64,000 nucleotides of DNA from Escherichia coli (GTDB lineage Bacteria; Pseudomonadota; Gammaproteobacteria; Enterobacterales; Enterobacteriaceae): NCBI RefSeq assembly GCF_024223415.1, contig NZ_CP100500.1; one strand, 5' to 3'. The stretch's first letter is position 1. Each line of letters starts with the position of its first letter. The position numbers were made by a program, and so were the translations under genes. Below, piece after piece: positions 12,234-32,981 of the stretch. The notes under the pieces are model-generated. The model worked only from the letters and a program-made list of their open reading frames with translations. It did not search any database and was not told where the DNA came from.

Positions 12234-12290
12234 CACGTTATCAGGCCACCGCGGTGGCCTGACTGATTTCTGAATGAAAGGAACTGATTT

Positions 12291-13220: not shown

Positions 13221-13327
13221 CGGTGGGGGATCCCGCCCGTGAATTTACCATGACGCAGTCCGCGCCGCTGATGGTGTTGCCGGACCCGGATGAGTTTGTG
13301 GTGGTACAGGTGAAATAATCCGTGAGC

Positions 13328-13355
13328 GGGGGCGAAATGCCCCCGTGTCTTTTTT
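13328..13355 (+). terminator. Hairpin plus T-run between capsid gene E and FI
   Basis: gggggc-gaaat-gccccc, 5 nt, then TTTTTT. Confidence 0.5.
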
Positions 13356-13369
13356 CACAGGGGGCTGAT

Positions 13370-13732
13370 ATGGCAACGAAAGAGCAAAATCTGAAACGGC
13401 TTGATGAACTGGCCCTGATTCTGGGGCGTGAGCCGGATATATCCGGGAGTGCCGCAGAGATAGCGCAGCGGGTGGCGGAATGGGAAGAGGAAGCAGAGGA
13501 CAAAAACCAGGAGAGTGATGAGAACGAAAGGCATTTGATGACGTATAGCCACTCCACTGGCGGGGATGAAATGAGCACTGTTCGTGTACTCAAAACCCTG
13601 CATGTGGCGGGAAAACATCCGCATGATGACAGTGATATGGAGATTGTTGTTACAGGTATGACTGTCAGAGTTGATCCAGTGAATGTTGCGGAACTTGTCC
13701 TGGAGGGGCTTGTTACAGATGAAAGTTATTAA
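13370..13732 (+). CDS. FI: DNA-packaging protein FI-like
   Basis: Position after E, lambda FI-like size, acidic; SD AGGGGG. Confidence 0.7.
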   Translation: MATKEQNLKRLDELALILGREPDISGSAAEIAQRVAEWEEEAEDKNQESDENERHLMTYSHSTGGDEMSTVRVLKTLHVAGKHPHDDSDMEIVVTGMTVRVDPVNVAELVLEGLVTDESY

Positions 13733-14081
13733 TATCAGGGATAACGGTTTTGATACAGCCATTGCCCGGGCTGATGAAACGATACGCGGGCATATGGGAA
13801 CGTCAGCCACCATTACATCCGGTGAGCAGCCCGGCGCAGTAATACGTGGTGTTTTTGATGACCCTGAAAATATCAGCTATGCCGGACAGGGCGTGCGCGT
13901 TGAAGGCTCCAGCCCGTCCCTGTTTGTCCGGACTGATGATGTGCGGCAACTGCGGCGTGGAGACACGCTGACCATCGGTGAGGAAAACTTCTGGATAGAC
14001 CGGGTTTCGCCGGATGATGGCGGAAGCTGTCATCTCTGGCTTGGGCGGGGCGTACCGCCTGCCGTTAATCGTCGCCGCTGA
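13719..14081 (+). CDS. FII: Head completion protein FII
   Basis: ...FDTAIARADETIRGHMGTSATITSGEQPGAVIRGVFDDPENISYAGQGVRVEGSSPSLFVRTDDVRQLRRGDTLTIGEENFW... near-identical to lambda FII as recalled. Confidence 0.9.
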   Translation: MKVINIRDNGFDTAIARADETIRGHMGTSATITSGEQPGAVIRGVFDDPENISYAGQGVRVEGSSPSLFVRTDDVRQLRRGDTLTIGEENFWIDRVSPDDGGSCHLWLGRGVPPAVNRRR

Positions 14082-14092
14082 AAGGGGGATGT

Positions 14093-14668
14093 ATGGCCAT
14101 ACAGGGTCTTGAGCAGGCCGTTGAAAACCTCAGCCGTATCAGCAGAACGGCGGTGCCTGGTGCCGCCGCAATGGCCATTAACCGCGTGGCCACAACGGCG
14201 ATTAATCAGTCTTCGTCTCAGGTCGCCCGTGAAACCCGGGTGCCGAGAAAACTTGTTAAAGAGCGATCCAGACTGAAACGGGCTACGGTCAGAAATCCGA
14301 ACGCAAAAATTATCGTTAACCGCGGCGATCTTCCTGTGATTAAGCTGGGGATCAGGATGCTGGGACGTCGCCCGAACAGCATACTCAAAGCCGGTCAGCA
14401 TCGTTATCAGCGGGCATTCATCCAGCGACTGAATAATGGGCGCTGGCATGTTATGCAACGTCTGCCAGAAGCCAGGTATGCGAAGGGCAATGACGATAAG
14501 GGAAGGAAAAAGCGTAATCGTCTTCCCATTCAGGTGGTGAAAATTCCGATGTCGGCCCCACTGAAACAGGCTTTTGATGAGAACGTTAACCGTATCCGAC
14601 GCGAACGTCTGCCAAAAGAACTGAGCTATGCGCTGAAACAACAACTGAGGATTGTGATAAAGCGATGA
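14093..14668 (+). CDS. Z: Minor tail protein Z
   Basis: 191 aa, lambda Z position and size. Confidence 0.85.
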   Translation: MAIQGLEQAVENLSRISRTAVPGAAAMAINRVATTAINQSSSQVARETRVPRKLVKERSRLKRATVRNPNAKIIVNRGDLPVIKLGIRMLGRRPNSILKAGQHRYQRAFIQRLNNGRWHVMQRLPEARYAKGNDDKGRKKRNRLPIQVVKIPMSAPLKQAFDENVNRIRRERLPKELSYALKQQLRIVIKR

Positions 14669-15060
14669 AAAATACTGATATCCGTACAGCCGTACTGGAT
14701 GCACTGGAGAAGCATGACACCGGGGCGACGTTTTTTGATGGTCGCCCCGCTGTTTTTGATGAGGCGGATTTTCCGGCAGTTGCCGTTTATCTCACCGGCG
14801 CTGAATACACGGGCGAAGAGCTGGACAGCGATACCTGGCAGGCGGAGCTGCATATTGAAGTTTTCCTGCCTGCTCAGGTGCCGGATTCAGAGCTGGATTC
14901 GTGGATGGAGTCCCGGATTTATCCGGTGATGAGCGATATCCCGGCACTGTCAGATTTGATCACCAGTATGGTGGCCAGTGGCTATGACTACCGGCGCGAC
15001 GATGATGCGGGCCTGTGGAGTTCAGCCGATCTGACTTATGTCATTACCTATGAAATGTGA
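14665..15060 (+). CDS. U: Minor tail protein U (tail terminator)
   Basis: 131 aa, near-identical to lambda gpU (…[46 protein letters not shown]…). Confidence 0.95.
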
Positions 15061-15067
15061 GGACGAT

Positions 15068-15808
15068 ATGCCAACACCAAATCCTCTGGCACCGGTGAAA
15101 GGGGCCGGGACCACACTGTGGGTTTATAAGGGGAACGGTGACCCTTATGCGAACCCGCTTTCAGACAATGACTGGTCGCGTCTGGCTAAAGTTAAAGACC
15201 TGACGCCCGGCGAACTGACCGCAGATTTCTATGACGACAGCTATCTCGATGATGAAGATTCGGACTGGGCCGCGACCGGACAGGGGCAGAAATCCGCCGG
15301 AGATACCAGCTTCACGCTGGCGTGGATGCCCGGAGAGCAGGGGCAGCAGGCGCTGCTGGCGTGGTTTAATGAAGGTGATACCCGTGCCTATAAAATCCGC
15401 TTCCCGAACGGCACGGTCGATGTGTTCCGCGGCTGGGTCAGCAGCATCGGTAAGGCGGTGACAGCGAAGGAAGTGATCACCCGCACGGTGAAAGTCACCA
15501 ACGTGGGACGTCCGTCGATGGCAGAAGATCGCAGCACGCTAACAGCGGCAACCGGCATGACCGTGACGCCTGCCAGCACCTCGGTGGTGAAAGGGCAGAG
15601 CACCACGCTGACCGTGGCATTCCAGCCGGAAGGCGCAACCGACAAGAGCTTCCGTGCGGTGTCTGCGGATAAAACAAAAGCCACCGTGTCGGTCAGTGGT
15701 ATGACCATCACCGTGAAGGGCGTTGCTGCAGGCAGGGTCAACATTCCGGTCGTATCCGGTAATGGTGAACTTGCTGCGGTTGCAGAAATCAACGTCACCG
15801 CCAGTTAA
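15068..15808 (+). CDS. V: Major tail protein V
   Basis: 246 aa, lambda V length; C-terminal Ig-like region. Confidence 0.9.
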
Positions 15809-15823
15809 TCCGGAGAGTCAGCG

Positions 15824-16246
15824 ATGTTCCTGAAAAACGAATCATTTGAACATAACGGCGTGACCGTCACGCTTTCTGAACTGTCAGCCCTGCAGCGTAT
15901 TGAGCATCTTGCCTGGTTGAAAGAGCAGGAAAAAAAGGCTGAATCCAGTGGCAACCTGCAGGTGTCTGTAGAGGATCTTATCAGAGGCGGGGCGTTTCTG
16001 GTGGCGATGTCTCTGTGGCATAACCATCCGCAGAAGACAAAGCTGCTGCCCATGAATGAAGCCATTACGCAGATTGAGCAGGAAGTGCTTACCACCTGGC
16101 CCACGGAGGCAATTGCTCAGGCTGAAAACGTGGTGTTACGTCTGTCCGGAATGTCTGAGTTTGTTGTGAATAATGCCCCTGAACAGGCAGATGACGCCGG
16201 GCCTGCAGAGCCTGTTTCTGCGGGAAAGTGTTCGACGGTGAGCTGA
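15824..16246 (+). CDS. G: Tail assembly chaperone G
   Basis: 140 aa; ends just after the slippery heptamer GGGAAAG. Confidence 0.9.
   Translation: MFLKNESFEHNGVTVTLSELSALQRIEHLAWLKEQEKKAESSGNLQVSVEDLIRGGAFLVAMSLWHNHPQKTKLLPMNEAITQIEQEVLTTWPTEAIAQAENVVLRLSGMSEFVVNNAPEQADDAGPAEPVSAGKCSTVS
16222..16228 (+). promoter_or_regulatory. Programmed -1 ribosomal frameshift slippery site (G GGA AAG) producing the G-T fusion
   Basis: Exact lambda G/GT heptamer located 6 codons before the G stop; the T frame opens here. Confidence 0.8.
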
Positions 16247-16662
16247 GTTTTGCCCTGAAACTGGCGCGTGAGATGGGGCGACCCGACTGGCGCGCCATGC
16301 TTGCCGGGATGTCATCCACGGAGTATGCCGACTGGCACCGCTTTTACAGTACCCATTATTTTCATGATGTTCTGCTGGATATGCACTTTTCCGGGCTGAC
16401 GTACACCGTGCTCAGCCTGTTTTTCAGCGATCCGGATATGCATCCGCTGGATTTCAGTCTGCTGAACCGGCGCGAGGCTGACGAAGAGCCTGAAGATGAT
16501 GTGCTGATGCAGAAAGCGGCAGGGCTTGCCGGAGGCGTCCGCTTTGGCCCGGACGGGAATGAAGTTATCCCTGCATCCCCGGATGTGGCGGACATGACGG
16601 AGGATGACGTAATGCTGATGACAGTATCAGAAGGGATCGCAGGAGGAGTCCGGTATGGCTGA
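16228..16662 (+). CDS. T: Tail assembly protein T (made only as a G-T fusion by -1 frameshift)
   Basis: -1 frame ORF extending from the slippery site to the start of H. Confidence 0.8.
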   Translation: MFDGELSFALKLAREMGRPDWRAMLAGMSSTEYADWHRFYSTHYFHDVLLDMHFSGLTYTVLSLFFSDPDMHPLDFSLLNRREADEEPEDDVLMQKAAGLAGGVRFGPDGNEVIPASPDVADMTEDDVMLMTVSEGIAGGVRYG

Positions 16663-19216
16663 ACCGGTAGGCGATCTGGTCGTTGATTTAAGTCTGGATG
16701 CGGCCAGGTTTGACGAGCAGATGGCCAGAGTCAGGCGTCATTTTTCCGGTACGGAAAGTGATGCGAAAAAAACAGCGGCAGTCGTTGAACAGTCAATGAA
16801 CCGGCAGGCGCTGGCTGCACAGAAAGCGGGGATTTCCGTCGGACAGTATAAAGCCGCCATGCGTATGCTGCCTGCACAGTTCACCGACGTGGCCACACAG
16901 CTTGCAGGCGGGCAGAGTCCGTGGCTGATCCTGCTGCAACAGGGTGGTCAGGTGAAGGACTCCTTCGGCGGGATGATCCCCATGTTCAGGGGGCTTGCCG
17001 GTGCGATCACCCTGCCGATGGTCGGGGCCACCTCGCTGGCGGTGGCGACCGGTGCGCTGGCGTATGCCTGGTATCAGGGCAACTCAACCCTGTCCGATTT
17101 CAACAAAACGCTGGTCCTTTCCGGCAATCAGGCGGGACTGACGGCAGATCGTATGCTGGTCCTGTCCAGAGCCGGGCAGGCGGCAGGGCTGACGTTTAAC
17201 CAGACCAGCGAGTCACTCAGCGCACTGGTTAAGGCGGGGGTAAGCGGTGAGGCTCAGATTGCGTCCATCAGCCAGAGTGTGGCGCGTTTCTCCTCTGCAT
17301 CCGGCGTGGAGGTGGACAAGGTCGCTGAAGCCTTCGGGAAGCTGACCACAGACCCGACGTCGGGGCTGACGGCGATGGCGCGCCAGTTCCATAACGTGAC
17401 GGCGGAGCAGATTGCGTATGTTGCTCAGTTGCAGCGTTCCGGCGATGAGGCAGGGGCATTGCAGGCGGCGAACGAGGCCGCAACGAAAGGGTTTGATGAC
17501 CAGACCCGCCGCCTGAAAGAGAACATGGGCACGCTGGAAACCTGGGCAGACAGGACAGCACGGGCATTCAAATCCATGTGGGATGCGGTGCTGGATACTG
17601 GTCGTCCTGATACCGCGCAGGAGATGCTGATTAAGGCAGAGGCCGCGTTTAAGAAAGCGGACGATATCTGGAATCTGCGCAAGGATGATTATTTTGTTAA
17701 CGATGAAGCGCGGGCGCGTTACTGGGATGATCGTGAAAAGGCCCGTCTTGCGCTTGAAGCCGCCCGAAAGAAGGCTGAGCAGCAGAGTCAACAGGACAAA
17801 AATGCGCAGCAGCAGAGCGATACCGAAGCGTCACGGCTGAAATATACCGAAGAGGCGCAGAAGGCTTACGAACGCCTGCAGACACCGCTGGAGAAATATA
17901 CCGCCCGTCAGGAAGAACTGAACAAGGCACTGAAAGACGGAAAAATCCTGCAGGCAGATTACAACACGCTGATGGCGGCGGCGAAAAAGGATTATGAAGC
18001 GACGCTGAAAAAGCCGAAACAGTCCGGCGTGAAGGTGTCTGCGGGCGATCGTCAGGAAGACAGTGCTCATGCCGCCCTGCTGACGCTTCAGGCAGAACTC
18101 CGGACGCTGGAGAAGCATGCCGGAGCAAATGAGAAAATCAGCCAGCAGCGCCGGGATTTGTGGAAGGCGGAGAGTCAGTTCGCGGTACTGGAGGAGGCGG
18201 CGCAACGTCGCCAGCTGTCTGCACAGGAGAAATCCCTGCTGGCGCATAAAGATGAGACGCTGGAGTACAAACGCCAGCTGGCTGCACTTGGCGACAAGGT
18301 TACGTATCAGGAGCGCCTGAACGCGCTGGCGCAGCAGGCGGATAAATTCGCACAGCAGCAACGGGCAAAACGGGCCGCCATTGATGCGAAAAGCCGGGGG
18401 CTGACTGACCGGCAGACAGAACGGGAAGCCACGGAACAGCGCCTGAAGGAACAGTATGGCGATAATCCGCTGGCGCTGAATAACGTCATGTCAGAGCAGA
18501 AAAAGACCTGGGCGGCTGAAGACCAGCTTCGCGGGAACTGGATGGCAGGCCTGAAGTCCGGCTGGAGTGAGTGGGAAGAGAGCGCCACGGACAGTATGTC
18601 GCAGGTAAAAAGTGCAGCCACGCAGACCTTTGATGGAATTGCACAGAATATGGCGGCGATGCTGACCGGCAGTGAGCAGAACTGGCGCAGCTTCACCCGT
18701 TCCGTGCTGTCCATGATGACAGAAATTCTGCTTAAGCAGGCAATGGTGGGGATTGTCGGGAGTATCGGCAGCGTCATTGGCGGTGCTGCCGGTGGTGGCG
18801 CATCAGTGTCAGGCGGTACAGCCATTCAGGCTGCTGCGGCAAAATTCCATTTTGCGACCGGGGGATTTACGGGAACCGGCGGCAAATATGAGCCAGCGGG
18901 GATTGTTCACCGTGGTGAGTTTGTCTTCACGAAGGAGGCAACCAGCCGGATTGGCGTGGGAAATCTCTACCGGCTGATGCGCGGCTATGCCACTGGTGGT
19001 TATGTCGGTGGCACCGGAAGTCCGGCACAAATGCGGCGTTCAGAGGGTATCAGGTTTGAGCAGAACAACAACGTGGTGATTCAGAACGACGGTACGAATG
19101 GTCTGCCAGGTCCACAGATGCTGAAGGCGGTGTATGACATGGCCCGCAAGGGTGCCCGTGATGAAATTCAGACACAGATGCGTGATGGTGGTCTGTTCTC
19201 CGGAGGTGGACGATGA
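16655..19216 (+). CDS. H: Tail tape measure protein H
   Basis: 853 aa, the same length as lambda H; coiled-coil-rich with a Gly-rich C-terminal region. Confidence 0.9.
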   Translation: MAEPVGDLVVDLSLDAARFDEQMARVRRHFSGTESDAKKTAAVVEQSMNRQALAAQKAGISVGQYKAAMRMLPAQFTDVATQLAGGQSPWLILLQQGGQVKDSFGGMIPMFRGLAGAITLPMVGATSLAVATGALAYAWYQGNSTLSDFNKTLVLSGNQAGLTADRMLVLSRAGQAAGLTFNQTSESLSALVKAGVSGEAQIASISQSVARFSSASGVEVDKVAEAFGKLTTDPTSGLTAMARQFHNVTAEQIAYVAQLQRSGDEAGALQAANEAATKGFDDQTRRLKENMGTLETWADRTARAFKSMWDAVLDTGRPDTAQEMLIKAEAAFKKADDIWNLRKDDYFVNDEARARYWDDREKARLALEAARKKAEQQSQQDKNAQQQSDTEASRLKYTEEAQKAYERLQTPLEKYTARQEELNKALKDGKILQADYNTLMAAAKKDYEATLKKPKQSGVKVSAGDRQEDSAHAALLTLQAELRTLEKHAGANEKISQQRRDLWKAESQFAVLEEAAQRRQLSAQEKSLLAHKDETLEYKRQLAALGDKVTYQERLNALAQQADKFAQQQRAKRAAIDAKSRGLTDRQTEREATEQRLKEQYGDNPLALNNVMSEQKKTWAAEDQLRGNWMAGLKSGWSEWEESATDSMSQVKSAATQTFDGIAQNMAAMLTGSEQNWRSFTRSVLSMMTEILLKQAMVGIVGSIGSVIGGAAGGGASVSGGTAIQAAAAKFHFATGGFTGTGGKYEPAGIVHRGEFVFTKEATSRIGVGNLYRLMRGYATGGYVGGTGSPAQMRRSEGIRFEQNNNVVIQNDGTNGLPGPQMLKAVYDMARKGARDEIQTQMRDGGLFSGGGR

Positions 19217-19542
19217 AAACCTTCCGCTGGAAAGTGAAACCCGGTATGGATGTGGCTTCGGTCCCTTCTGTAAGAAAGGTGCGCTTTGGTGATGGCTATT
19301 CCCAGCGAGCGCCTGCCGGGCTGAATGCCAACCTGAAAACGTACAGCGTGACGCTTTCTGTCCCCCGTGAGGAGGCCACGGTACTGGAGTCGTTTCTGGA
19401 AGAGCACGGGGGCTGGAAATCCTTTCTGTGGACGCCGCCTTATGAGTGGCGGCAGATAAAGGTGACCTGCGCAAAATGGTCGTCGCGGGTCAGTATGCTG
19501 CGTGTTGAGTTCAGCGCAGAGTTTGAACAGGTGGTGAACTGA
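19213..19542 (+). CDS. M: Minor tail protein M
   Basis: 109 aa, lambda M size and position. Confidence 0.9.
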   Translation: MKTFRWKVKPGMDVASVPSVRKVRFGDGYSQRAPAGLNANLKTYSVTLSVPREEATVLESFLEEHGGWKSFLWTPPYEWRQIKVTCAKWSSRVSMLRVEFSAEFEQVVN

Positions 19543-20240
19543 TGCAGGATATCCGGCAGGAAACACTGAATGAATGCACCCGTGCGGAGCAGTCGGCCAG
19601 CGTGGTGCTCTGGGAAATCGATCTGACAGAGGTCGGTGGAGAACGTTATTTTTTCTGTAATGAGCAGAACGAAAAAGGTGAGCCGGTCACCTGGCAGGGG
19701 CGACAGTATCAGCCGTATCCCATTCAGGGGAGTGGTTTTGAACTGAATGGCAAAGGCACCAGTACGCGCCCCACGCTGACGGTTTCTAACCTGTACGGTA
19801 TGGTCACCGGTATGGTGGAAGATATGCAGAGTCTGGTCGGCGGAACGGTGGTCCGGCGTAAAGTTTATGCCCGTTTTCTGGATGCGGTGAACTTCGTCAA
19901 CGGAAACAGTGACGCCGATCCGGAGCAGGAGGTTATCAGCCGCTGGCGCATCGAGCAGTGCAGTGATTTGACAGCGGTCAGCGCGACCTTTGTACTGGCC
20001 ACGCCGACGGAAACGGACGGCGCTGTTTTTCCGGGACGTATCATGCTGGCCAACACCTGCACCTGGACCTATCGCGGCGATGAGTGCGGTTATAGCGGTC
20101 CGGCTGTCGCGGATGAATATGACCAGCCAACGTCCGATATCACGAAGGATAAATGCAGCAAATGCCTGAGTGGCTGTAAGTTCCGCAATAACGTCGGCAA
20201 CTTTGGCGGTTTTCTTTCCATTCACAAACTTTCGCAGTAA
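19542..20240 (+). CDS. L: Minor tail protein L
   Basis: 232 aa, lambda L size; C-terminal Cys cluster. Confidence 0.9.
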   Translation: MQDIRQETLNECTRAEQSASVVLWEIDLTEVGGERYFFCNEQNEKGEPVTWQGRQYQPYPIQGSGFELNGKGTSTRPTLTVSNLYGMVTGMVEDMQSLVGGTVVRRKVYARFLDAVNFVNGNSDADPEQEVISRWRIEQCSDLTAVSATFVLATPTETDGAVFPGRIMLANTCTWTYRGDECGYSGPAVADEYDQPTSDITKDKCSKCLSGCKFRNNVGNFGGFLSIHKLSQ

Positions 20241-20244
20241 TTCC

Positions 20245-20988
20245 ATGACAGAGACAGAATCAGCGATTCTGGCGCACGCCCGGCGATGTGCGCCAGCGGA
20301 GTCGTGCGGCTTCGTGGTGAGAGCGCCGGAGGGGGAAAGATATTTCCCCTGCGTGAATATCTCCGGTGAGCCGGAGGCGTATTTCCGGATGTCGCCGGAG
20401 GACTGGCTGCAGGCAGAGATGCAGGGTGAGATTGTGGCGCTGGTCCACAGTCACCCCGGTGGTCTGCCCTGGCTGAGTGAGGCCGACCGGCGGCTGCAGG
20501 TGCAGAGTGATTTGCCGTGGTGGCTGGTCTGCCGGGGGGCGATTCACAAGTTCCGCTGTGTGCCGCATCTCACCGGGCGGTGCTTTGAGCACGGGGTGAC
20601 GGACTGTTACACGCTGTTCCGGGATGCTTACCATCTGGCGGGAATTGAGATGCCGGATTTTCATCGCGGGGATGACTGGTGGCGTAACGGTCAGAATCTC
20701 TATCTTGACAATATGGAGGCGACTGGTTTTTACCGTGTCGCACTGACAGAGGCGCAGCCCGGCGACGTGCTGCTGTGCTGTTTTGGTTCATCGGTGCCGA
20801 ATCATGCCGCCATTTACTGCGGCGACGGCGGGCTGCTGCACCATATTCCTGAACAACTGAGCAAACGAGAGAGGTATACCGACAAATGGCAGCGACGCAC
20901 ACACTCCCTCTGGCGTCACCGGGCATGGCACGCATCTGCCTTTACGGGGATTTGCAACGATTTGGCCGCCGCATCGACCTTCGTGTGA
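20245..20988 (+). CDS. K: Tail assembly protein K (NlpC/P60 plus JAB-like domains)
   Basis: MTETESAILAHARRCAPAESCGFVV... matches lambda K as recalled. Confidence 0.9.
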   Translation: MTETESAILAHARRCAPAESCGFVVRAPEGERYFPCVNISGEPEAYFRMSPEDWLQAEMQGEIVALVHSHPGGLPWLSEADRRLQVQSDLPWWLVCRGAIHKFRCVPHLTGRCFEHGVTDCYTLFRDAYHLAGIEMPDFHRGDDWWRNGQNLYLDNMEATGFYRVALTEAQPGDVLLCCFGSSVPNHAAIYCGDGGLLHHIPEQLSKRERYTDKWQRRTHSLWRHRAWHASAFTGICNDLAAASTFV

Positions 20989-21533
20989 AAACGGGAGCCG
21001 AAGCCATCCGGGCGCTGGCCACGCAGCTCCCTGCGTTTCGTCAGAAACTGAGCGACGGCTGGTATCAGGTGCGTATTGCCGGGCGTGATACAGGCGAAAA
21101 CGAATTATCAGCCCGTCTTAATGAACCGCTGGCAAATGGTGCCGTGATCCACATCGTGCCGCGTCTGGCGGGAGCCAAACGTGGTGGTGTGTTTCAGGCA
21201 GTGCTGGGCGCGGCGCTGATTGCGGTGGCATGGTGGAACCCTGCAGGCTGGCTGGGGGCTGCGGCTTTATCGGGCATGTATGCGGCAGGGGCCAGTATGG
21301 TGCTCGGTGGTGTGGCGCAGATGCTGGCACCGAAAGCCAAAACCCCCCGCACACAGACAACGGATAACGGCAAACAGAACACCTATTTTTCTTCACTGGA
21401 TAACATGGTTGCCCAGGGGAATGCTCTGCCCGTTCTGTACGGTGAAATGCGCGTGGGGTCACGGGTAATTTCGCAGGAGATCAGCACAGCGGATGAGGGG
21501 GATGGCGTCCGGGTTGTGGTGATTGGTCGCTGA
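20886..21533 (+). CDS. I: Tail assembly protein I
   Basis: MAATHTLPLASPGMARICLYGDLQRFGRR... lambda I-like; overlaps the K 3' end. Confidence 0.85.
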   Translation: MAATHTLPLASPGMARICLYGDLQRFGRRIDLRVKTGAEAIRALATQLPAFRQKLSDGWYQVRIAGRDTGENELSARLNEPLANGAVIHIVPRLAGAKRGGVFQAVLGAALIAVAWWNPAGWLGAAALSGMYAAGASMVLGGVAQMLAPKAKTPRTQTTDNGKQNTYFSSLDNMVAQGNALPVLYGEMRVGSRVISQEISTADEGDGVRVVVIGR

Positions 21534-21593
21534 TGAAAAACGTTTTATGTGAAACCGCCTCCGGGCGGTTTTGTCGTTTATGGAGCGTGAGGA

Positions 21594-24500
21594 ATGGGTA
21601 AAGGCAGCAGTAAGGGGCATACCCCGCGCGAAGCGAAGGACAACCTGAAGTCCACGCAGTTGCTGAGTGTGATCGATGTCATCAGCGAAGGGCCGATACA
21701 AGGACCGGTGGATGGATTAAAAAGCGTGCTGCTGAACGGTACGCCGGTGCTGGACAGTGAGGGGAATACCAATATATCCGGCGTCACGGTGGTATTCCGG
21801 GCCGGTGAGCAGGAGCAGACGCCGCCGGAGGGATTTGAATCCTCCGGCTCCGAGACGGTGCTGGGTACGGAAGTGAAGTACGACACGCCGATTACCCGGA
21901 CCATCACGTCGGCAAACATCGACCGTCTGCGCCTGACCTTCGGTGTGCAGGCACTGGTGGAAACCACCTCAAAGGGGGACCGGAATCCGTCGGAAGTCCG
22001 CCTGCTGGTTCAGATACAGCGTAACGGTCGCTGGTTAACGGAAAAAGACATCACCATTAAGGGCAAAACCACTTCACAGTATCTGGCTTCGGTGGTGGTG
22101 GATAACCTGCCGCCGCGCCCGTTCAGTATCCGGATGCGCAGGATGACACCGGACAGCACCACAGACCAGCTGCAGAACAAAACGCTCTGGTCGTCATACA
22201 CCGAAATCATCGATGTGAAACAGTGCTACCCGAACACGGCACTGGTCGGTGTGCAGGTGGATTCGGAGGAGTTCGGCAGCCAGCAGGTGAGCCGTAATTA
22301 TCATTTTCGCGGGCGCATTCTGCAGGTGCCGTCGAACTATAACCCGCAGACGCGGCAATACAGCGGTATCTGGGACGGAACGTTTAAACCGGCATACAGC
22401 GATAACCCGGCCTGGTGTCTGTGGGATATGCTGACCCACCCGCGCTACGGCATGGGGAAACGTGTTGGCGCAGCGGATGTGGACAAATGGGCGCTGTATG
22501 TCATCGGCCAGTACTGCGACCAGTCGGTGCCGGACGGCTCTGGTGGCACGGAGCCGCGCATCACCTGTAATGCCTGGCTGACCAGGCAGCGTAAGGCGTG
22601 GGATGTGCTCAGTGATTTCTGCTCGGCGATGCGCTGTATGCCGGTATGGAACGGGCAGACGCTGACGTTCGTGCAGGACCGACCGTCGGATAAGGTGTGG
22701 ACCTATAACCGCAGTAATGTGGTGATGCCGGATGATGGCGCGCCGTTCCGCTACAGCTTCAGCGCCCTGAAGGACCGCCATAATGCCGTTGAGGTGAACT
22801 GGAGTGACCCGGATAACGGCCAGGAGACGGCGACAGAGCTTGTGGAGGACACGCAGGCCATTGCCCGTTACGGTCGTAACGTCACGAAGATGGATGCCTT
22901 TGGCTGTACCAGCCGGGGGCAGGCACACCGCGCCGGGCTGTGGCTGATTAAAACGGAGCTGCTGGAAACGCAGACCGTGGACTTCAGCGTGGGTGCCGAA
23001 GGGCTTCGCCATGTGCCGGGCGATGTCATTGAAATCTGTGATGATGACTATGCCGGTATCAGCACCGGTGGGCGCGTGCTGGCGGTGAACAGCCAGACCC
23101 GGACGCTGACGCTCGATCGTGAAATCACGCTGCCATCCTCCGGTACCACGCTGATAAGCCTGGTTGACGGAAGTGGCAATCCGGTCAGCGTGGAGGTTCA
23201 GTCCGTCACTGACGGCGTGAAGGTGAAAGTGAGCAGTGTTCCTGACGGCGTTGCTGAATACAGCGTGTGGGGGCTGAAGCTGCCGACGCTGCGCCAGCGC
23301 CTGTTCCGCTGCGTGAGTATCCGTGAGAACGACGACGGCACGTATGCCATCACTGCCGTGCAGCATGTACCGGAAAAAGAGGCCATCGTGGATAACGGGG
23401 CGCACTTTGACGGCGACCAGAGCGGAACGGTGAATGGTGTCACGCCGCCAGCGGTGCAGCACCTGACCGCAGAAGTCACCGCAGACAGCGGGGAATATCA
23501 GGTGCTGGCGCGCTGGGACACGCCGAAGGTGGTGAAGGGCGTGAGCTTCCTGCTTCGCCTGACCGTGGCAGCGGATGACGGCAGTGAGCGGCTGGTCAGC
23601 ACGGCCCGGACGACGGAAACCACATACCGCTTCAGGCAACTGGCGCTGGGGCGTTACACGCTGACGGTCCGGGCGGTAAATGCCCGGGGGCAGCAGGGAG
23701 ACCCGGCGTCGGTATCGTTCCGGATTGCCGCACCGGCAGCGCCGTCGCGGATTGAGCTGACGCCGGGCTATTTTCAGATAACCGCCACGCCGCATCTTGC
23801 GGTTTACGATCCGACGGTACAGTTTGAGTTCTGGTTTTCGGAAAAGCGGATTACCGATATCAGGCAGGTTGAAACCACAGCCCGTTATCTTGGTACCGGA
23901 AGGCAGTGGCTTGTCTCCGGCCAGAATATTAAACCTGGCCATGATTATTACTTTTATATCCGCAGTGTTAACACTGTCGGTAAATCGGCATTCGTGGAGG
24001 CAGTCGGTCGGGCGAGTAATGATCCTGCCGGTTACCTTAATTTTTTCAGGGGGGCGATAAATAAAACGCATCTGGGACGGGAGATCAATGAACGCATTGA
24101 TGCCTCTGCACGGCGCACTGAAGTTGAGCAACTGGAGAATGCGATTAACCGCGAAATGACGCAGCTGGAGAAAGATGTGAGGCAGCGTGCGGAGCGTGAT
24201 ATCGCAGAGGTGACGAAAAAAATCACGGCGTCTGAAAACAGCATAACGGAACTGGTGGCGAAAAAGAGCGGTGAACAGTCAATGGCCATTGCGGAAGTTG
24301 ACAGAAAAGTTGACAGGATGGGAAGCGAAATCCGGCAGACAGTAAGCAGGAGCACGGAGGAGAACAGCCGACAGATAGCGCAGATCAGACAGTATGTTGA
24401 TGATAAGGGAAGTCAGATCACACAGAGCACGGATAAAAAACTGGGATCCTGGAATGCCAGCATTGAGCAGATACAGAAAGTTCAGGAGGACACGCGCCGG

Positions 24501-25325
24501 AACCTGAACAGCATGTGGGCTGTGAAGCTGCAGCAGACACGGGATGGACGTCTCTATATTGCAGGTATTGGTGCCGGAATCGAAAATACGTCTGACGGAA
24601 TTCAGAGTCAGATCCTGATGCAGGCAGATCGTATTGCGATGATTAACCCGGAAAATGGCAATACAACACCTTTGTTTGTAGCTCAGGGTGATCAGCTGTT
24701 CATGAATGATGTTTTCATGAAGCGACTGTTTGCGGTGAGTATCACCTCATCCGGCAATCCCCCGGCATTTTCCCTGACACCGGACGGGCGTCTGACGGCG
24801 AAAAATGTCGATATCAGTGGTAACGTGAATGCGAATTCGGGCTCGCTCAACAACGTCACGATTAACGAGAACTGTCGGGTTCTGGGAAAACTGTCTGCAA
24901 ACCAGATTGAAGGCGATCTCGTTAAAACAGTGGGTAAGGCTTTCCCCCGTGACTCCCGTGCACCGGAGACGTGGCCATCAGGGACCATTACCGTCAGGGT
25001 TTATGACGATCAGCCGTTTGACCGGCAAATTGTTATTCCAGCGGTGGCTTTCAGGGGGGCCAGACATCCGCGGAAGGATAAGGAGCCTTATTCGTCATGC
25101 CGCCTGATAGTGAAGAAAAACGGGGCTGAAATTTATAACCGAACGGCTCTGGATAATACGCTGATATACACGGGTGTTATTGATATGCCTGCAGGCAGTG
25201 GCGTAATGACACTGGAGTTTTCGGTATCAGCATGGTGGGTAAATGGCTGGTATCCCTCAGCAAGTATCAGCGATTTGCTGGTTGTTGTGATGAAGAAAGC
25301 CACTGCAGGCATCACGATTAGCTGA
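21594..25325 (+). CDS. J: Central tail fibre / host specificity protein J
   Basis: 1243 aa with conserved J N-terminal domains; C-terminal ~350 aa is the receptor-binding region. Confidence 0.9.
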
Positions 25326-25343
25326 ATTTTATAACCCAGATAC

Positions 25344-25368
25344 GGGCGCCAGAAATGGCGCCTTTTTT
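25344..25368 (+). terminator. Rho-independent terminator after J
   Basis: ggcgcc-agaaat-ggcgcc followed by TTTTTT. Confidence 0.6.
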
Positions 25369-25383
25369 ATTTGTGGAGCGAGT

Positions 25384-27198
25384 ATGGCGGCTGTAAAAAT
25401 TTCAGGCGTGCTGAGGGACGGAACCGGAAAACCGGTACCGGGATGCATTATTGAGCTGAAAGCGAAGAGAACCAGCGAGACAGTCATCGCCACGACAGTG
25501 GCTTATGGCATGCCGGAAGAGACGGGGAGTTACAGTATGGATGTGGAGCCAGGAATATACAGGGTGACACTCAATACAGAAGGTTACCGTCCTTCGTATG
25601 TGGGAGATATCGTGGTCAGGGAGGATTCTTCACCGGGAACACTGAATAAATTTCTGATGGAGATGGAAGATGCTCCTTATTATCCGAAGGCGTTGTCAGA
25701 GCTGGAGGCTGTGGTGCAGTCCATACTGCACAGAGCAGAGTCCGCGGCATCTGAGGCGGAGGAAGCCCGGAAACGAGCTGCATCTGCCCGGGGACCACGA
25801 GGAGAGAAAGGGGATACTGGTGCTCGTGGTGAAAGAGGCATTACCGGGCCACAGGGGCCAAAAGGTGAAACAGGAGCACGTGGCCCGGCAGGACCACAGG
25901 GACCAAAAGGTGAAACAGGTGAACGCGGTCCGGCAGGTCCACAGGGACTAAAGGGCGATACAGGTGAACGCGGCCCGGCAGGTCCACAGGGACCAAAGGG
26001 TGAAACAGGTGCACGCGGCCCGGCAGGTCCACAGGGAGCAAAGGGCGAAACAGGTGAACGCGGCCCGGCAGGTCCACAGGGAGCAAAGGGCGAAACAGGT
26101 GCACGTGGTCCGGAAGGCCCTCAGGGTCTGAAGGGAGAAAAGGGTGAGCGAGGAGAAAAAGGCCCTAAGGGGGATAAAGGAGATCCGGGAGGTCCACAGG
26201 GACCAAAGGGGGATACAGGTGAACGCGGCCCGGCAGGTCCACAGGGATCAAAGGGCGATACAGGTGAACGTGGCCCGGCAGGTCCTCAGGGACCAAAGGG
26301 GGATACAGGTGAACGTGGCCCGGAAGGTCCACAGGGAGCAAAGGGTGAAACAGGTGAACGCGGCCCGGCAGGACCACAGGGACCAAAAGGTGAAACAGGT
26401 GAACGCGGTCCGACAGGTCCACAGGGAGCAAAAGGTGAAACAGGAGCACGCGGTCCGGCAGGTCCTCAGGGACCAAGAGGAGAGTCAGCCCGTGGACAAC
26501 TGCTGAATGGTGATCTGAACCGACTGGGACGAGTGACCGATCAGGGTGATTATTATCAGCCATCAGACAGTGGGGCTACACGAGAAAATAATTATCCGAT
26601 TCAGAGAGCGGGTTATCTTCAGGTAAGAGTTGGTGCATGGGGATATTGCCAGCATGAATATACAACCTGGAACCCACCACGAAAGTTCGTAAGAACTGTT
26701 ACTGGTAATTTTACCGGTAATGGCCCCTGGTCTGAATGGAAAGAGCTGGGAGCCCAGGGGGAGCGTGGTCCACAGGGACCAAAAGGTGAAACAGGTGCAC
26801 GCGGTCCGGCAGGTCCACAGGGGCCAAGAGGGTATACAGGTGAACGCGGGCAGACAGGTCTACAGGGGCCAAGAGGGTATACAGGTGAACGCGGTCCGGC
26901 AGGTCCACAGGGGCCAAGAGGAGAAGCGGGGCGGCCAGCGAGCGTCGGAAGTGTTTATTCCGTGGGGTCTTATGTTCTGGGGATCATAGAACGAAATCAT
27001 GAGATAACAAATACCCGTCAAATACCCGGGTATCGTATCAGACAGGCCGTTATTGTGTCGTCGTCATCGGATAAACTTACAGATATCCGCTTTTTATTTG
27101 GCAATCCTATGCTTGGTACATGGATGTTATGCACAACTAACATGACGGTGAATAATATCATTGGGACGATTTGGGGCCTGTTTCAGAGAATACGGTGA
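25384..27198 (+). CDS. stf: Side tail fibre protein with collagen-like Gly-X-Y repeats (Stf N-terminus)
   Basis: N-terminus [29 protein letters not shown] resembles lambda Stf; then long runs of [16 protein letters not shown]. Confidence 0.85.
25790..26490 (+). repeat. Collagen-like (Gly-X-Y)n coding repeats inside stf; second block at ~26750-26935
   Basis: Tandem 27-bp units encoding [16 protein letters not shown] and variants; these create spurious ORFs in other frames. Confidence 0.85.
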
Positions 27199-27212
27199 CA
27201 GGGGAGAAATGA

Positions 27213-27788
27213 ATGAAGGTCGATAAAATCACGTCACCAGTGTGGGCTGACAGGGGTCATACGACCATAAACTGTATAGTGAAGTTTTCAGACGCGGAAA
27301 CAGAATGTGTATTTACAGCAAGTGCGGATGATCCTGAGTCTTACGGTCGTGAAATATTTGAAGCCTGCATAAGAGGTGATGCAGGGCCGGTAGGTGAGTA
27401 CCGGGCAAATGATGATATGGCTGTGGAAGAAGCACGCAGGATGAAAAACGCGGAGATAAATGCCTGGCGTGATGCGATGGAGGCGTCAGGGTATGTTTTT
27501 GAGCACAGAGGACGGAAATGGGATTATGGAAAGGAAACCATGACACGTCTTGGAATGTCGGCATCAGCGGCCAGAGGCGGTGTGTTGCCGGAAGGATTTT
27601 TCTGGACGGACGCAGAGAATAATGATGTACCGATGACGGCAGATGAACTGATATCCCTGAGTGATGCTGCTGGTAAAGCGATGTTCAGGAAAGGCCTTGA
27701 AATACATATAAGGCAAAGGGAGATGAAAAAGGCAATAGCAGAACTGAGTGACAGTGAAACCATTCTGGCGTACAGGGTTGGATGGTGA
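27213..27788 (+). CDS. Hypothetical protein downstream of stf (possible tail-fibre assembly or accessory protein; not lambda Tfa-like)
   Basis: 191 aa with SD GGGGAG; sits where tfa would be but lacks the Tfa sequence pattern. Confidence 0.6.
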   Translation: MKVDKITSPVWADRGHTTINCIVKFSDAETECVFTASADDPESYGREIFEACIRGDAGPVGEYRANDDMAVEEARRMKNAEINAWRDAMEASGYVFEHRGRKWDYGKETMTRLGMSASAARGGVLPEGFFWTDAENNDVPMTADELISLSDAAGKAMFRKGLEIHIRQREMKKAIAELSDSETILAYRVGW

Positions 27789-28534
27789 AACTGATAAAAA
27801 AACCCCTCTGAAAATTCTGTCAGAGGGGGGCAAGGATCTATATTTATTATGCAGTAATGCTTTCACTCCGGTAATTAATTTCCGTGATTAACTGCTTTCG
27901 ATCAATAAAGGAATTGCAAAAAGGTGATCTTGTTCACGACATCGTGGATGATAATATGCCTGATGTCTGAATCCGGAAACAGTGATCTGGCGGGTTTCAT
28001 GTGAAGTTGACGGATAAAAAAATCCGCACGACCAGACAGACGTGCGGTTTACGAAATTCGTAACAAGAGGCTTTTCTACGGATCACGTGGTGCGTGCCAC
28101 GTGAAATTTTTGTAGCGCAAAATGTGTAATGTGTAAATACAAGGAAGGAAAAAGTTAAATCGGTGGAAGTCCATGCCTGCCACATGTATGTCTGCATTCC
28201 TCGTTTTGAACAGAATTCTCACCAGACATCGTGAATTTCTCATTCAATCATCAGAGATATTAACCAGGATTTTTATTGTTTTGTGATATCAGCAGTGCAG
28301 GTATACAGACATTAAAGTAATCAGGTTTATTATAACCACCTTTACAAAGTTGTATGTGTTTATAATTTAAGGATTTTAATCCCAGTCGTTTTCTGCTGCT
28401 TAAATTGAGGGCGCATATTATACACAATAATATTCCTGGCATTATTAAATTAATAAAAGAGGATTCTTATCACTGTATTTTTGCTCCGCACTACCGTTCT
28501 GGCTGGTGAAGTAATAATACAGGAGAATAACAGA

Positions 28535-29644
28535 ATGCTTAAAAGACGTGATGCTTTTTTAAAGAAAAGCGCGCTGGCAGTGAGTGTGGCCCTGCTGCTC
28601 TCATCTCAGGCTTCGGCTCATAAAACAATTACTGATTCAACGGCGGGTATTATCTGGATTGATGGTGGCGGTCAGTCACTTGAAAAAGTAGCTGTGATTG
28701 ACCGTCAACTAAATGATACAGGATATAATTTTGCCGTAGGTAGTGGTGCAGCAATTCTGGATGCGGATAAATCCATGGCAACAGGAAATAATACAGCTGT
28801 TTTTAATGCAGACAACAGTGTCGCTCTGGGGTATGGCTCTCAGGTGAATGGAGAAAGCAATGTACTTTCTGTAGGGGCCGGTCCTTCAGGATATGGATTT
28901 TCAGTTGATGGTGCACCGGAAACCCGCCGGATTATAAATGTTTCAGATGGTGTTAAGGATAGTGATGCGGCCACAAAAGGACAGATGGACAACGCCATTG
29001 CAGATGCTGTACGGGAGTCGGGGGATGCCCTGCGCGGTGAGATAGGAGCTGTCTACCGTGATGCTGTTGCTGATGCTAAGAGTCGAGTGGAATCGGCAGA
29101 AAACAGACTTAACGGTAATATTACAGCTGCCAGGGCTTCTGCGCAGGAATACACGGATGCGGTGAAGTCGGATGTTCTGGACGAGACGCGTACATATACA
29201 GACAGCAGTGTGCGTACTGTCCGTAACGAGGTGAAAAGCCAGGCAGAACATCTCAGCGATGTGCTTGTGAAGAACAGGGCGCAGACGGATGCAGCAATAG
29301 CCTCAAATACAGCAGCGATAAGGAATAACAGTCATCGTCTGGATTTGACGGAAGCCTGGCAGAAGATGGCGACAGAGAGAATGAATAATATGCAGGAGCA
29401 GATTAAAGAGAACCGGAAGGAGTTAAGGGAGAGTGCAGCCCAGAGCGCGGCACTGGCCGGTCTTTTCCAGCCATACAGTGTTGGAAAATTTAACGCGACA
29501 GCAGCCGTTGGTGGTTACCGTGATGAGCAGGCCATTGCGGTGGGCGTGGGCTACCGTTTCACAGAGAATGTGGCAGGAAAAGTTGCAGTTGCTGCAGGTG
29601 GGTCATCCGCATCGTGGAATGCTGGTGTGAATTTTGAGTTCTGA
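28535..29644 (+). CDS. Trimeric autotransporter adhesin, YadA-like (Eib-family-like)
   Basis: Signal peptide, head/neck motifs (INVSDGVKDSDAATKGQMDNAIAD), coiled-coil stalk and C-terminal anchor ending AGVNFEF; SD AGGAGA. Confidence 0.8.
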   Translation: MLKRRDAFLKKSALAVSVALLLSSQASAHKTITDSTAGIIWIDGGGQSLEKVAVIDRQLNDTGYNFAVGSGAAILDADKSMATGNNTAVFNADNSVALGYGSQVNGESNVLSVGAGPSGYGFSVDGAPETRRIINVSDGVKDSDAATKGQMDNAIADAVRESGDALRGEIGAVYRDAVADAKSRVESAENRLNGNITAARASAQEYTDAVKSDVLDETRTYTDSSVRTVRNEVKSQAEHLSDVLVKNRAQTDAAIASNTAAIRNNSHRLDLTEAWQKMATERMNNMQEQIKENRKELRESAAQSAALAGLFQPYSVGKFNATAAVGGYRDEQAIAVGVGYRFTENVAGKVAVAAGGSSASWNAGVNFEF

Positions 29645-29704
29645 CAGGTCAGGATTTAGATATCTGTCCCGGGGGAGTCCCCCGGGATATAATGAGGTAC
29701 AGAG

Positions 29705-30160
29705 ATGCTGGATATAATCCTGGCGACGAGAGATATTTATTTTGAAAAAGCCCTGCGAGAGATATTTGGAACCGTAAGCAGTCGAATCAGATATATAGAA
29801 GATGCCATATCAGACAGAAGAAGGGTGCAGTCAGGCAGGTCATTCAGATATTATTTTGTATTCTGTGATGATGAGTATACAGATATTGTTCGTATTCTTT
29901 TTACCGGAGAGGCCTGCTGTATTCTGAATAAGTCGATGCTGAATCTGAGAGCGGCCGGAGGTGTGTTGACGCTGGAAGAGCGCAGAGCGGTACTGAACCG
30001 GTATTACAGAGGTTTAAGTATTGCGGAGATTACAGAAGAGACGGGGCAGAATGACAAGACGGTATACGGTCATCTTCGTCGTGCACTGCAGCGGTCTGGA
30101 TTCCGGAAGGGGCGTTTTATAAAGGGGAGAGAAGCTGCGGGGGATTCAGGTGTTGAATAA
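29705..30160 (+). CDS. Putative transcriptional regulator with sigma-70 region-4/LuxR-type HTH
   Basis: C-terminal LTLEERRAVLNRYYRGLSIAEITEETGQNDKTVYGHLRRALQR; preceded by palindrome cccgggggagtcccccggg. Confidence 0.6.
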   Translation: MLDIILATRDIYFEKALREIFGTVSSRIRYIEDAISDRRRVQSGRSFRYYFVFCDDEYTDIVRILFTGEACCILNKSMLNLRAAGGVLTLEERRAVLNRYYRGLSIAEITEETGQNDKTVYGHLRRALQRSGFRKGRFIKGREAAGDSGVE

Positions 30161-30543
30161 TGTATCTTATATTGTGATATCGGTGCTGCTGCTGTTATTT
30201 TTTGTTGTATTTGTGACGAATGGTTAAGAATAAAACATGAGCTGGTGATTATCAGGACAGGTTGCTTGTATATGAAGATAACAAAGGCGGCATTTATTTT
30301 TGCGCTGTCAGTGTGGAGTGTTGCTGTGATATGTCTTTTATTATTTGTACTGGTTGTTCTGGGATAGCTATAGTGGAATTATTATTTTTTTAAGACTATG
30401 GTTTATATTTTTATTCGGCAATATTTCTGTAAACAATTAAATATCAGAAAGGCGTGTTGTATGCGTGAACACGCCTGAGTATGTATACAGAGATTGTTAA
30501 TTTGGAGAGAATAATTACAGTTGTTATTTATTTGACGTCCTGA

Positions 30544-30792
30544 TTAGTGAAAAAACCAGTCATCAGCAGTTTCCCAGACTTCCTGCAGCGTTTCCTGTAT
30601 GAACTTCTGAGCGTTTTCTTTATCTACGGCTCTTAAAATGGTCAGTCCGTCATTACTGGCGGATTTTACTATAACCTCCACATCGTCATATCGTTTTCTG
30701 ATACGGCGAGACATTTCCTGTTGTAGAGCAGGTACAGAGCCTTTTGGCATTTTGCTGAATTTTTCTTTAGCGATACAGATCTCAACACGCAT
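30544..30792 (-). CDS. DinI-like protein
   Basis: 82 aa [16 protein letters not shown]...[14 protein letters not shown] resembles DinI; SD GGAGGG. Confidence 0.85.
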
Positions 30793-31005
30793 AACCCCCT
30801 CCTGTAACTGTAGTTATGTACAGGTGTTATTTTTAGCTGTGTGGATAACCAGTGTCAATTGGTAATATTGCCTATGGGGCATGTATGGGACACTTTTTAT
30901 CGGCGAAATCCGTCGAAGTTCGTCGACATCGAAAACGAATCATCTGTCCAACCCTTGAAAAATGGCGCTCCTGGACGATCTTCGTCGATTTTTAAAAATG
31001 TTGCG

Positions 31006-31074
31006 TCACGCGCGTAACGTGACAGGATTAATATCACAAAGCAACGCCACTTCACCAATTGTGTAAAGCGCCAT
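31006..31074 (-). pseudogene. mlrA: mlrA (yehV) 5' fragment, truncated after codon 23 by prophage insertion
   Basis: Minus-strand ATG at 31074 encodes MALYTIGEVALLCDINPVTLRA then a stop; this matches the MerR-type MlrA N-terminus as recalled, and the sequence to the left is phage. Confidence 0.7.
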
Positions 31075-31295
31075 CGTCTCACCCTTGCTCGCGAGGTCCC
31101 GGTTTAACTTTAGACGCAGTTTTGCGAACCAGGTAGTTTTGCCCGTTTTTTGTGCATCTATAGGGTGATTTTATTTTTGCCAGGCGATTTTGAGTGATCG
31201 TACTCACGAATTCTCATTTTTCTGCAAGAGTTCAAAGAAAGTTAAACGCAGGCAATGTATGTTACGCGTTTTAAAGGGAAGTGTGGTTTGCGGGT

Positions 31296-32981
31296 ATGTA
31301 CGATTTTAATCTGGTGTTGCTGCTGCTTCAGCAGATGTGCGTTTTTTTAGTCATTGCATGGTTAATGAGTAAAACGCCATTATTCATACCGTTAATGCAG
31401 GTCACGGTTCGTCTGCCGCATAAATTTCTCTGCTACATCGTCTTTTCCATCTTCTGCATCATGGGCACCTGGTTTGGGTTGCACATTGACGATTCTATTG
31501 CCAATACCCGTGCGATAGGCGCGGTAATGGGCGGCTTACTCGGCGGTCCGGTCGTCGGTGGGCTGGTTGGGCTGACCGGCGGCTTACATCGATATTCGAT
31601 GGGGGGCATGACCGCGTTAAGTTGCATGATCTCGACCATCGTTGAAGGATTACTCGGTGGCCTGGTACACAGCATCCTGATCCGCCGCGGGCGCACTGAT
31701 AAAGTCTTTAACCCCATTACCGCCGGTGCCGTCACGTTCGTCGCTGAAATGGTGCAAATGCTGATCATCCTTGCGATCGCCCGACCTTATGAAGATGCGG
31801 TGCGTCTGGTGAGTAATATTGCTGCGCCAATGATGGTCACCAATACCGTCGGCGCGGCGCTGTTTATGCGTATATTGCTCGATAAACGCGCGATGTTTGA
31901 AAAATACACTTCGGCTTTTTCTGCCACTGCGCTGAAAGTGGCAGCCTCGACGGAAGGCATTTTGCGCCAGGGGTTTAACGAAGTGAACAGCATGAAAGTG
32001 GCTCAGGTGCTGTATCAGGAACTGGATATTGGTGCAGTCGCGATTACCGATCGAGAGAAATTGCTGGCCTTTACCGGAATTGGTGACGACCACCATTTAC
32101 CCGGCAAACCGATTTCTTCAACTTATACTTTAAAAGCGATTGAAACCGGTGAAGTGGTCTACGCTGATGGCAACGAAGTACCTTACCGTTGCTCTTTGCA
32201 TCCGCAATGCAAACTGGGGTCGACGCTGGTAATTCCGTTGCGTGGTGAAAATCAGCGGGTGATGGGCACCATCAAATTGTATGAAGCCAAAAACCGTTTA
32301 TTCAGTTCAATCAACCGCACGTTGGGTGAGGGGATTGCGCAATTGCTTTCGGCGCAGATCCTTGCCGGGCAATATGAGCGGCAAAAAGCGATGCTCACCC
32401 AGTCAGAGATCAAACTGCTTCACGCCCAGGTGAATCCCCATTTTTTGTTTAATGCGCTTAACACCATTAAAGCGGTGATCCGCCGCGACAGCGAACAGGC
32501 CAGCCAGCTGGTGCAGTATCTTTCCACTTTTTTCCGCAAAAACTTAAAGCGGCCTTCGGAGTTTGTTACTCTCGCCGACGAAATTGAACATGTGAATGCT
32601 TATCTGCAAATTGAAAAGGCGCGCTTCCAGTCGCGGTTGCAGGTCAACATTGCTATTCCGCAAGAATTATCCCAGCAGCAATTGCCCGCGTTTACCCTGC
32701 AACCGATAGTGGAAAACGCCATTAAACATGGGACATCACAACTGCTGGATACAGGGCGAGTGGCAATCAGCGCCCGACGTGAGGGGCAACATTTGATGCT
32801 GGAGATCGAAGACAATGCCGGTTTGTATCAACCGGTAACCAATGCCAGTGGGCTGGGGATGAATCTGGTGGATAAGCGTTTACGTGAACGGTTTGGCGAT
32901 GACTATGGAATAAGCGTCGCCTGTGAGCCTGATAGTTACACCCGAATAACGTTACGACTACCATGGAGGGACGAGGCATGA
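31296..32981 (+). CDS. btsS: Sensor histidine kinase BtsS (YehU), LytS family
   Basis: 561 aa; 5TM-LytS, GAF and HisKA_3/HATPase domains; followed by a LytTR regulator. Confidence 0.95.

Follow-up and report, generated by a model that had tools for sequence, protein, structure and literature searches.

A prophage junction within mlrA

We found that positions 30793..31074 of the DNA analysed here (a stretch of 64,000 nucleotides from the Escherichia coli contig NZ_CP100500.1, hereafter the window) constitute the attR junction of a site-specific prophage integration in mlrA (yehV). In the mechanism that we propose, a tyrosine integrase would have joined the phage attP to a 20-bp core in codons 16-23 of mlrA, thereby inserting a lambda-like prophage and splitting the gene: its promoter and first 22 codons remain beside btsS and end in a TGA created by the junction, and codons ~16/23-243 would be displaced by tens of kb to a place just downstream of xis-int of the phage. 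Since the MerR-type helix-turn-helix (HTH) domain is interrupted by the cut, neither piece should be able to serve as a DNA-binding activator of csgD. Weak or negative MlrA-dependent curli and biofilm would hence be expected with the prophage in place, and precise excision would restore mlrA. We hold this explanation as a whole with high confidence.

From left to right, the span 30793..31295 holds the P′ arm of the phage up to 31006, the mlrA stub (31006..31074) and, from 31075 onwards, the mlrA-btsS intergenic region. The features at the core and on its host side are:

31007..31026: att core of 20 bp, CCTGTCACGTTACGCGCGTG in the sense of mlrA, identical in attB, attR and attL
31006..31074, minus strand: 5′ stub of mlrA (mlrA′), codons 1-22 and the TGA formed by the junction, 100% identity to K-12
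31075..31295: mlrA-btsS intergenic region with the undisturbed mlrA upstream region, 100% identical to K-12
31296..32981, plus strand: btsS (yehU), the nearest host gene left intact on the right-hand side, placed by gene order and by PGAP coordinates transferred from the genome of the isolate Ch1

The minus-strand open reading frame 31006..31074 translates as MALYTIGEVALLCDINPVTLRA followed by a stop. Residues 1-22 of MlrA are encoded by 31074..31009, and the peptide is 100% identical to the corresponding residues of K-12 MlrA (tblastn E 1.4e-9); the remnant thus holds 22 sense codons, one fewer than the 23 given by an earlier reading made from the letters alone (the sequence-only reading). 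That reading had correctly noted that the MlrA N-terminus stops where a tryptophan is expected: directly after residue 22 the window has TGA (31008..31006) in place of the TGG at codon 23 of K-12, because the third base of the codon is the first base on the phage side. At the nucleotide level, K-12 DNA from inside btsS to nucleotide 68 of mlrA matches 31541..31007 at 100% over 535 nt and breaks off at 31007, which is that nucleotide 68. A tblastn search recovered no further mlrA sequence within the window, and beyond btsS the genes btsR, yehS, yehR and yehQ follow in K-12 order. In a three-way alignment with K-12 and the O157:H7 strain Sakai, the window and Sakai leave K-12 at the same column.

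The attachment sites can be laid out as follows:

attB (K-12): GATATTAAT + CCTGTCACGTTACGCGCGTG + GCAGAGG
attR (window): GATATTAAT + core + ACGCAACATTTTT
attL (Ch1 and Sakai): TTTACCCTTAATC + core + GCAGAGG

Thus, a single core is common to the K-12 attB, the attR of the window and the attL of Ch1 and Sakai, attL being taken from these relatives. Within it lies an imperfect inverted repeat, TGTCACG / CGTGACG around TTACGCG, and by analogy with lambda we infer that its two halves could be core-type Int sites flanking a 7-bp overlap region.

A simple scan also scores an inverted repeat at attR (31024..31004, minus strand, followed by CAACATTTTT) as terminator-like, and this hairpin sits just past the stop codon of the mlrA stub. 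We considered it as a special feature of the junction and rejected it: its stability is modest (-9.8 kcal/mol, z -1.9), and the uninterrupted attB folds equivalently, reflecting the inverted repeat of the core.

The phage arm and the DinI-like gene

The features on the phage side of attR are:

30793..31006: P′ arm of attR, from the core to the DinI-like gene, which aligns with Sakai Sp15, phage JLK-2012 and Ch1 at the same position
30873..30896, minus strand: candidate arm-type integrase-binding repeat, AAAGTGTCCCATacATGCCCCATA, with a direct copy in the P arm
30829..30858, minus strand: sigma-70-type promoter-like site (TTGACA, 18-nt spacer, AAAAAT), a consensus match only
30808..30823: perfect palindrome CTGT-N8-ACAG of LexA-box form, past the promoter-like site and ahead of the start codon of the DinI-like gene
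30544..30792, minus strand: DinI-like gene of 82 aa, with which the prophage ends (Pfam DinI, E 2.4e-19)

The P′ arm (30793..31006) has no homology in K-12. The two phage arms share a directly repeated 24-bp motif, AAAGTGTCCCATnnATGCCCCATA, with one copy at 30873..30896 in the P′ arm and the other, as seen in Ch1, in the P arm at a point 75 bp upstream of the core that falls within the 3′ end of int; from their sequence and placement these repeats are candidate arm-type Int sites. At the P′-arm repeat Sakai and JLK-2012 carry an extra 11-bp unit, ATGGGGCATCA, which the window and Ch1 lack. The copy number of the ATGGGGCAT-type unit of the P′ arm varies in this way.

The DinI-like gene is co-directional with the mlrA stub, has its counterpart at the same position in Sp15, JLK-2012 and Ch1, and is preceded by a GGAGG-type ribosome-binding site. 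Together, the promoter-like site, the palindrome and the predicted ribosome-binding site have the look of the usual SOS arrangement. The palindrome is meaningful through its position rather than its count, as the window holds 2 motifs of LexA-box form against 0.86 expected, which is not significant on its own.

Content of the visible prophage

The part of the prophage that lies within the window is:

1..31006, plus strand: late half of a lambdoid prophage, from the porin to the DinI-like gene, cut by the left edge of the window

That the DNA to the left of the junction is of phage origin, as the sequence-only reading had held, is borne out by the DinI-like gene, a YadA-like adhesin, a tail fibre, J, terminase, endolysin and spanin. 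The genes run in the order: porin, tRNA-Met/Arg/Thr, endolysin, Rz spanin, terminase, head and tail genes, J, a tail fibre with collagen repeats, a DUF4376 protein, the YadA-like adhesin, a sigma-70-r4-like HTH protein and the DinI-like gene. Such a gene order, with tail-fibre genes and DinI closing the late genes at attR, is lambdoid and is also that of Sp15. The late region within the visible 31 kb is continuous, and its terminase, portal, tail genes and J are long open reading frames. The integrase end of the prophage lies beyond the left edge, and a tblastn search of the window with the Sp15 Int gave no match at E<=1.

The same kind of search with Stx1A and Stx1B gave no match at E<=1 in the window. 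This result covers the visible prophage including the canonical tRNA-to-lysis interval that is the usual site of stx, the region upstream of the porin being outside the window. In that interval the tRNAs end at 2009 and are followed by a 71-aa open reading frame, a 183-aa PHROG of unknown function, the endolysin and the spanin. For its visible part, the prophage is thus a non-Stx occupant of the Stx1-phage site. Hence, the sequence-only reading, which had called mlrA/yehV an integration site of Stx-type phages, holds as regards the site, which is the same nucleotide and core as in the Stx1 prophage Sp15, and does not extend to the cargo, as the visible part here carries no stx.

Several features of the cargo deserve mention in their own right. 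The porin (75..1178, minus strand; Porin_1, E 2.7e-127) is phage-borne and, with the tRNA-Met/Arg/Thr cluster (1777..2009, plus strand), sits upstream of the lysis cassette, close to the stx position of Stx phages. The mlrA prophage of Ch1 has tRNA-Lys and tRNA-Ile at the matching position, and the occupants of the site are therefore mosaic. The tail fibre (25384..27198, plus strand) combines a prophage tail-fibre N-terminal domain with long collagen-like G-X-Y repeats (Pfam Collagen, E 5.5e-48, 6 stretches). Two further cargo genes lie between the tail-fibre genes and DinI: one (28481..29644, plus strand) codes for a 387-aa trimeric-autotransporter-like protein (Pfam YadA_anchor, E 2.3e-16), and the other (29705..30160, plus strand) for a 151-aa sigma-70-region-4-like HTH protein. 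We dropped the identification of the former as an Eib protein, as its PDB match was to the YadA anchor only and no Eib structure was matched. When 24.5 kb of prophage together with the junction were used to search the genome collection, no record covered both, and the best match, with 80% coverage, was to a similar prophage in a different place.

The far junction in relatives

The far junction lies outside the window, and its structure was read in Ch1, a chicken isolate with the closest match to the junction (99.8%), and in Sakai; on this footing we infer the far junction, the integrase and the curli phenotype of the window's own strain. In both relatives the far end consists of xis-int, the core and then mlrA from about codon 16. 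In Ch1 the core is 36 bp downstream of int, and the distal mlrA is followed by yohO and yehW. Across the relatives int and the distal mlrA are co-directional and about 35-75 bp apart.

The sequence-only reading had proposed that the host probably lacks MlrA function unless the other junction reconstitutes the gene. In neither Ch1 nor Sakai is it rebuilt, because the far junction lacks a promoter, a ribosome-binding site and any in-frame ATG, GTG or TTG before Trp23; indeed, an in-frame TAA stands 48 nt upstream of the core. The first ATG, GTG or TTG of the distal part in Ch1 is a TTG at the native Leu29. At the protein level, MlrA comprises a MerR HTH (residues 4-72), a helical domain (81-155) and a C-terminal domain (162-238) by Pfam, so that a cut at residue 22 bisects the HTH. 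The distal fragment is without residues 1-15, and with them helix 1 of the HTH, and matches only profile positions 26-68 of the Pfam HTH model. Helix 1 is left behind at attR, together with the promoter, the ribosome-binding site and the start codon.

The annotation of these fragments is a matter of its own. In Ch1 the distal fragment (23619..24305 of the retrieved locus) is labelled by PGAP as “HTH-type transcriptional regulator MlrA” of 228 aa with ATC as its first codon, and in Sakai (3957..4604 of the retrieved locus) it is annotated as MlrA of 215 aa with a TTG start. With such fragments labelled as normal MlrA, presence/absence screens would score these lysogens as mlrA-positive. The int gene of Ch1 (22296..23583 of the retrieved locus) is annotated as frameshifted, as are the terminase large subunit and a tail peptidase; the Ch1 prophage may be locked in place and the split of mlrA may be permanent in that isolate.

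Distribution among complete genomes

We surveyed 5,426 complete E. coli genomes, counting a genome when at least 80% of a probe was covered:

400-nt probe centred on attB (intact mlrA): 4,944 genomes
DinI-btsS junction as in the window: 458 genomes
int-mlrA′ junction: 457 genomes

The frequency of split mlrA is accordingly 457-458 of the 5,426 genomes, or about 8.4%. The attR-type and attL-type junctions occur in almost the same number of genomes, so that both ends are kept by most occupants. The attB probe matched 5,428 records at 5,885 places, with at most two places per genome; this is the pattern that split halves would produce, and it rules out a genome that combines the split with an intact copy. 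An intact mlrA beside the split, which would have spared MlrA function in the terms of the sequence-only reading, is thus absent across the complete genomes, and the distal part of mlrA is present in a single copy in Ch1. About 24 genomes have neither an intact mlrA nor the standard split. The junction is not confined to STEC, being found in VR50, IAI39 and several genomes labelled as UPEC or commensal.

Expected phenotype and significance

According to Brown et al. 2001 (as cited in PMC5931665), csgD and curli are activated by MlrA. By virtue of the activation of csgD, a prophage in mlrA can be seen as a reversible switch by which curli and biofilm are suppressed. Published work on such lysogens points the same way. 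More than 95% of clinical O157:H7 isolates are said to carry an mlrA prophage (PMC3874044; PMC5931665, citing Uhlich 2013, 2016 and Shaikh & Tarr 2003), mlrA supplied in trans restores curli and Congo-red binding in mlrA-prophage strains (PMC3874044; PMC5931665), and excision gives back the native mlrA (Uhlich 2016, as cited in PMC5931665). Lysogens of O157:H7, O103 and O113 are reported to be Congo-red/curli-negative and to be complemented by mlrA in trans (PMC3874044), and in the O103 and O113 lysogens plasmid-borne mlrA restores curli (PMC3874044). Further determinants of curli output are rpoS, motility and the csgD promoter (PMC3874044). Run-off transcription induces the distal MlrA fragments, whose effects are weak and non-canonical (PMC5931665). 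Extrapolating from the relatives and this literature, we consider an mlrA-null or hypomorphic state of the window's strain highly likely, contingent on its far end. Given the Congo-red effect of the distal fragments (PMC5931665), the loss of MlrA function may not be absolute.

In O157:H7 the mlrA prophage is a textbook feature with a bearing on persistence and food safety. The disruption of mlrA, the loss of curli and biofilm, the non-Stx occupants and the distal MlrA fragments have all been published already, and the prophage end in mlrA is a correct but ordinary finding that opens no new question. The small addition of the window is a non-Stx lambdoid phage with a different cargo at exactly the same site, apparently in a non-O157, poultry-associated background. 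The occupancy of the att site in about 8.4% of complete E. coli genomes is useful for annotation, as the distal fragment is routinely mislabelled MlrA.

Alternative explanations

A plain nonsense mutation of TGG to TGA in a continuous mlrA, without any phage junction, might be suggested by codon 23 differing in one base only. However, the similarity to K-12 mlrA ends wholly at that base with no further mlrA in the window, and the sequence beyond codon 23 aligns with the P′ arms of Sp15, JLK-2012 and Ch1, with the DinI-like gene coming next; the end of the K-12 match and the three-way alignment refute this explanation, whose probability is negligible. It is also very improbable that MlrA function is kept, be it that the far junction rebuilds the gene or that the strain has another intact mlrA elsewhere. 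Such a view could appeal to the PGAP label on the 228-aa fragment of Ch1 and to the phage side of attL, which encodes I-P-V-T-L-R-A, like the native I-N-P-V-T-L-R-A. We rejected the 228-aa call as a rebuilt gene on account of its non-canonical ATC start, the in-frame stop upstream of it and the missing helix 1; the resemblance of the two peptides, for its part, comes down to the shared core and a one-base-shifted TTAAT. The survey likewise speaks against this view, with 0 complete genomes that have both the split and an intact mlrA. Another conceivable situation is that the window holds a prophage remnant, with an old attR whose far part (possibly including the distal mlrA) has been deleted or rearranged, in which case excision could not restore the gene. 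Truncated yehV phages in many stx1-negative O157:H7 strains (PMC8309913, in a passage citing Shaikh & Tarr), the frameshifted integrase of Ch1 and the approximately 24 genomes without either form of mlrA are compatible with remnants. Against this, the visible 31 kb are a continuous late region with its long open reading frames, and the attR-type and attL-type junctions are nearly equal in number, which leaves a remnant quite improbable here.

The split might also fall short of a pure null, with the distal MlrA being read through from the int side and having a partial or modulatory activity on CsgD-dependent traits. The co-directional, closely spaced int and distal mlrA of the relatives would favour this, as would the helical and C-terminal domains of MlrA that the fragment keeps, the 62-fold induction of distal mlrA after SOS induction (PMC5931665) and the recombinant MlrA fragments that restored some Congo-red affinity, though not biofilm (PMC5931665). 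Yet csgD was not raised despite high expression of the fragment (PMC5931665), and the fragment lacks the DNA-binding region; we regard such residual activity as unlikely, if worth bearing in mind. A more far-reaching version, to which we assign a slim chance, is that integration rewires both junctions and makes the lysogen a regulatory variant rather than a simple mlrA null. The mlrA promoter is RpoS-dependent, and at attR it might drive the 22-residue peptide and read through the weak core hairpin into the SOS-boxed DinI-like gene, and at attL read-through from int could yield an HTH-less MlrA that could still engage protein partners of MlrA. If true, the read-through at attR would link stationary phase to the modulation of RecA. 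The prophage-split mlrA set out at the beginning remains our preferred reading.

Relationship to named phages and prophages

The best-known counterpart is Sp15, the Stx1a prophage of O157:H7 Sakai, which is integrated in yehV/mlrA with its breakpoint at mlrA nucleotide 68 and the same core as in the window. Its layout is that of the window, with yehU/btsS, the mlrA stub, the P′ arm, DinI and tail genes, and continues to stx1, xis-int and the distal mlrA. The P′ arms of the two align throughout, with ~20 substitutions and the 11-bp repeat unit missing from the window. The differences are concentrated in the cargo: Sp15 has stx1AB between Q and the lysis genes, whereas the window has there the porin, the three tRNAs and the gene of unknown function; and next to DinI the window has the YadA-like adhesin, the sigma-r4-like HTH protein and the collagen-repeat tail fibre, whereas Sp15 has a tail fibre and Lom. 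We take CP-933V of EDL933 to be the equivalent of Sp15.

In the Escherichia phage JLK-2012 (from O55:H7 DEC5E) the 21-bp attR annotated in the GenBank record is the core of the window plus one base, dinI likewise comes last, and the P′ arm shares 86.6% identity with that of the window; the effector gene espV adjoins dinI in this phage, in the place of the adhesin module of the window. Non-Stx prophages in yehV are documented (PMC8309913), and these, too, lack stx at the Stx1-phage site. They occur in O157:H7 and are often truncated to ~20 kb, whereas the window has at least 31 kb of late genes and its nearest junction matches are the chicken-associated, non-O157-labelled Ch1 and GF60.

Finally, Stx phages that integrate in yecE, Stx1_14040 and Stx2_EH2246 among them, are homologous to the window in the P′ arm and at the dinI end, with 81-86% identity; they have a variant core, CACGCAGTTAAAGTGACGGGC, and yecD/yecE as the host flank (in Stx1_14040 the core is at 1862..1882 of the retrieved locus). 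This variant core, found in records of Stx1a-converting phages, was traced to the known yecE site and is not that of mlrA. The two cores have their outer parts in common (CACGC...GTGAC) and differ in the centre. As judged from these sequences, the yecE phages represent a sister att specificity, and the mlrA-type and yecE-type cores would make a natural pair for studying the change of integrase target specificity.
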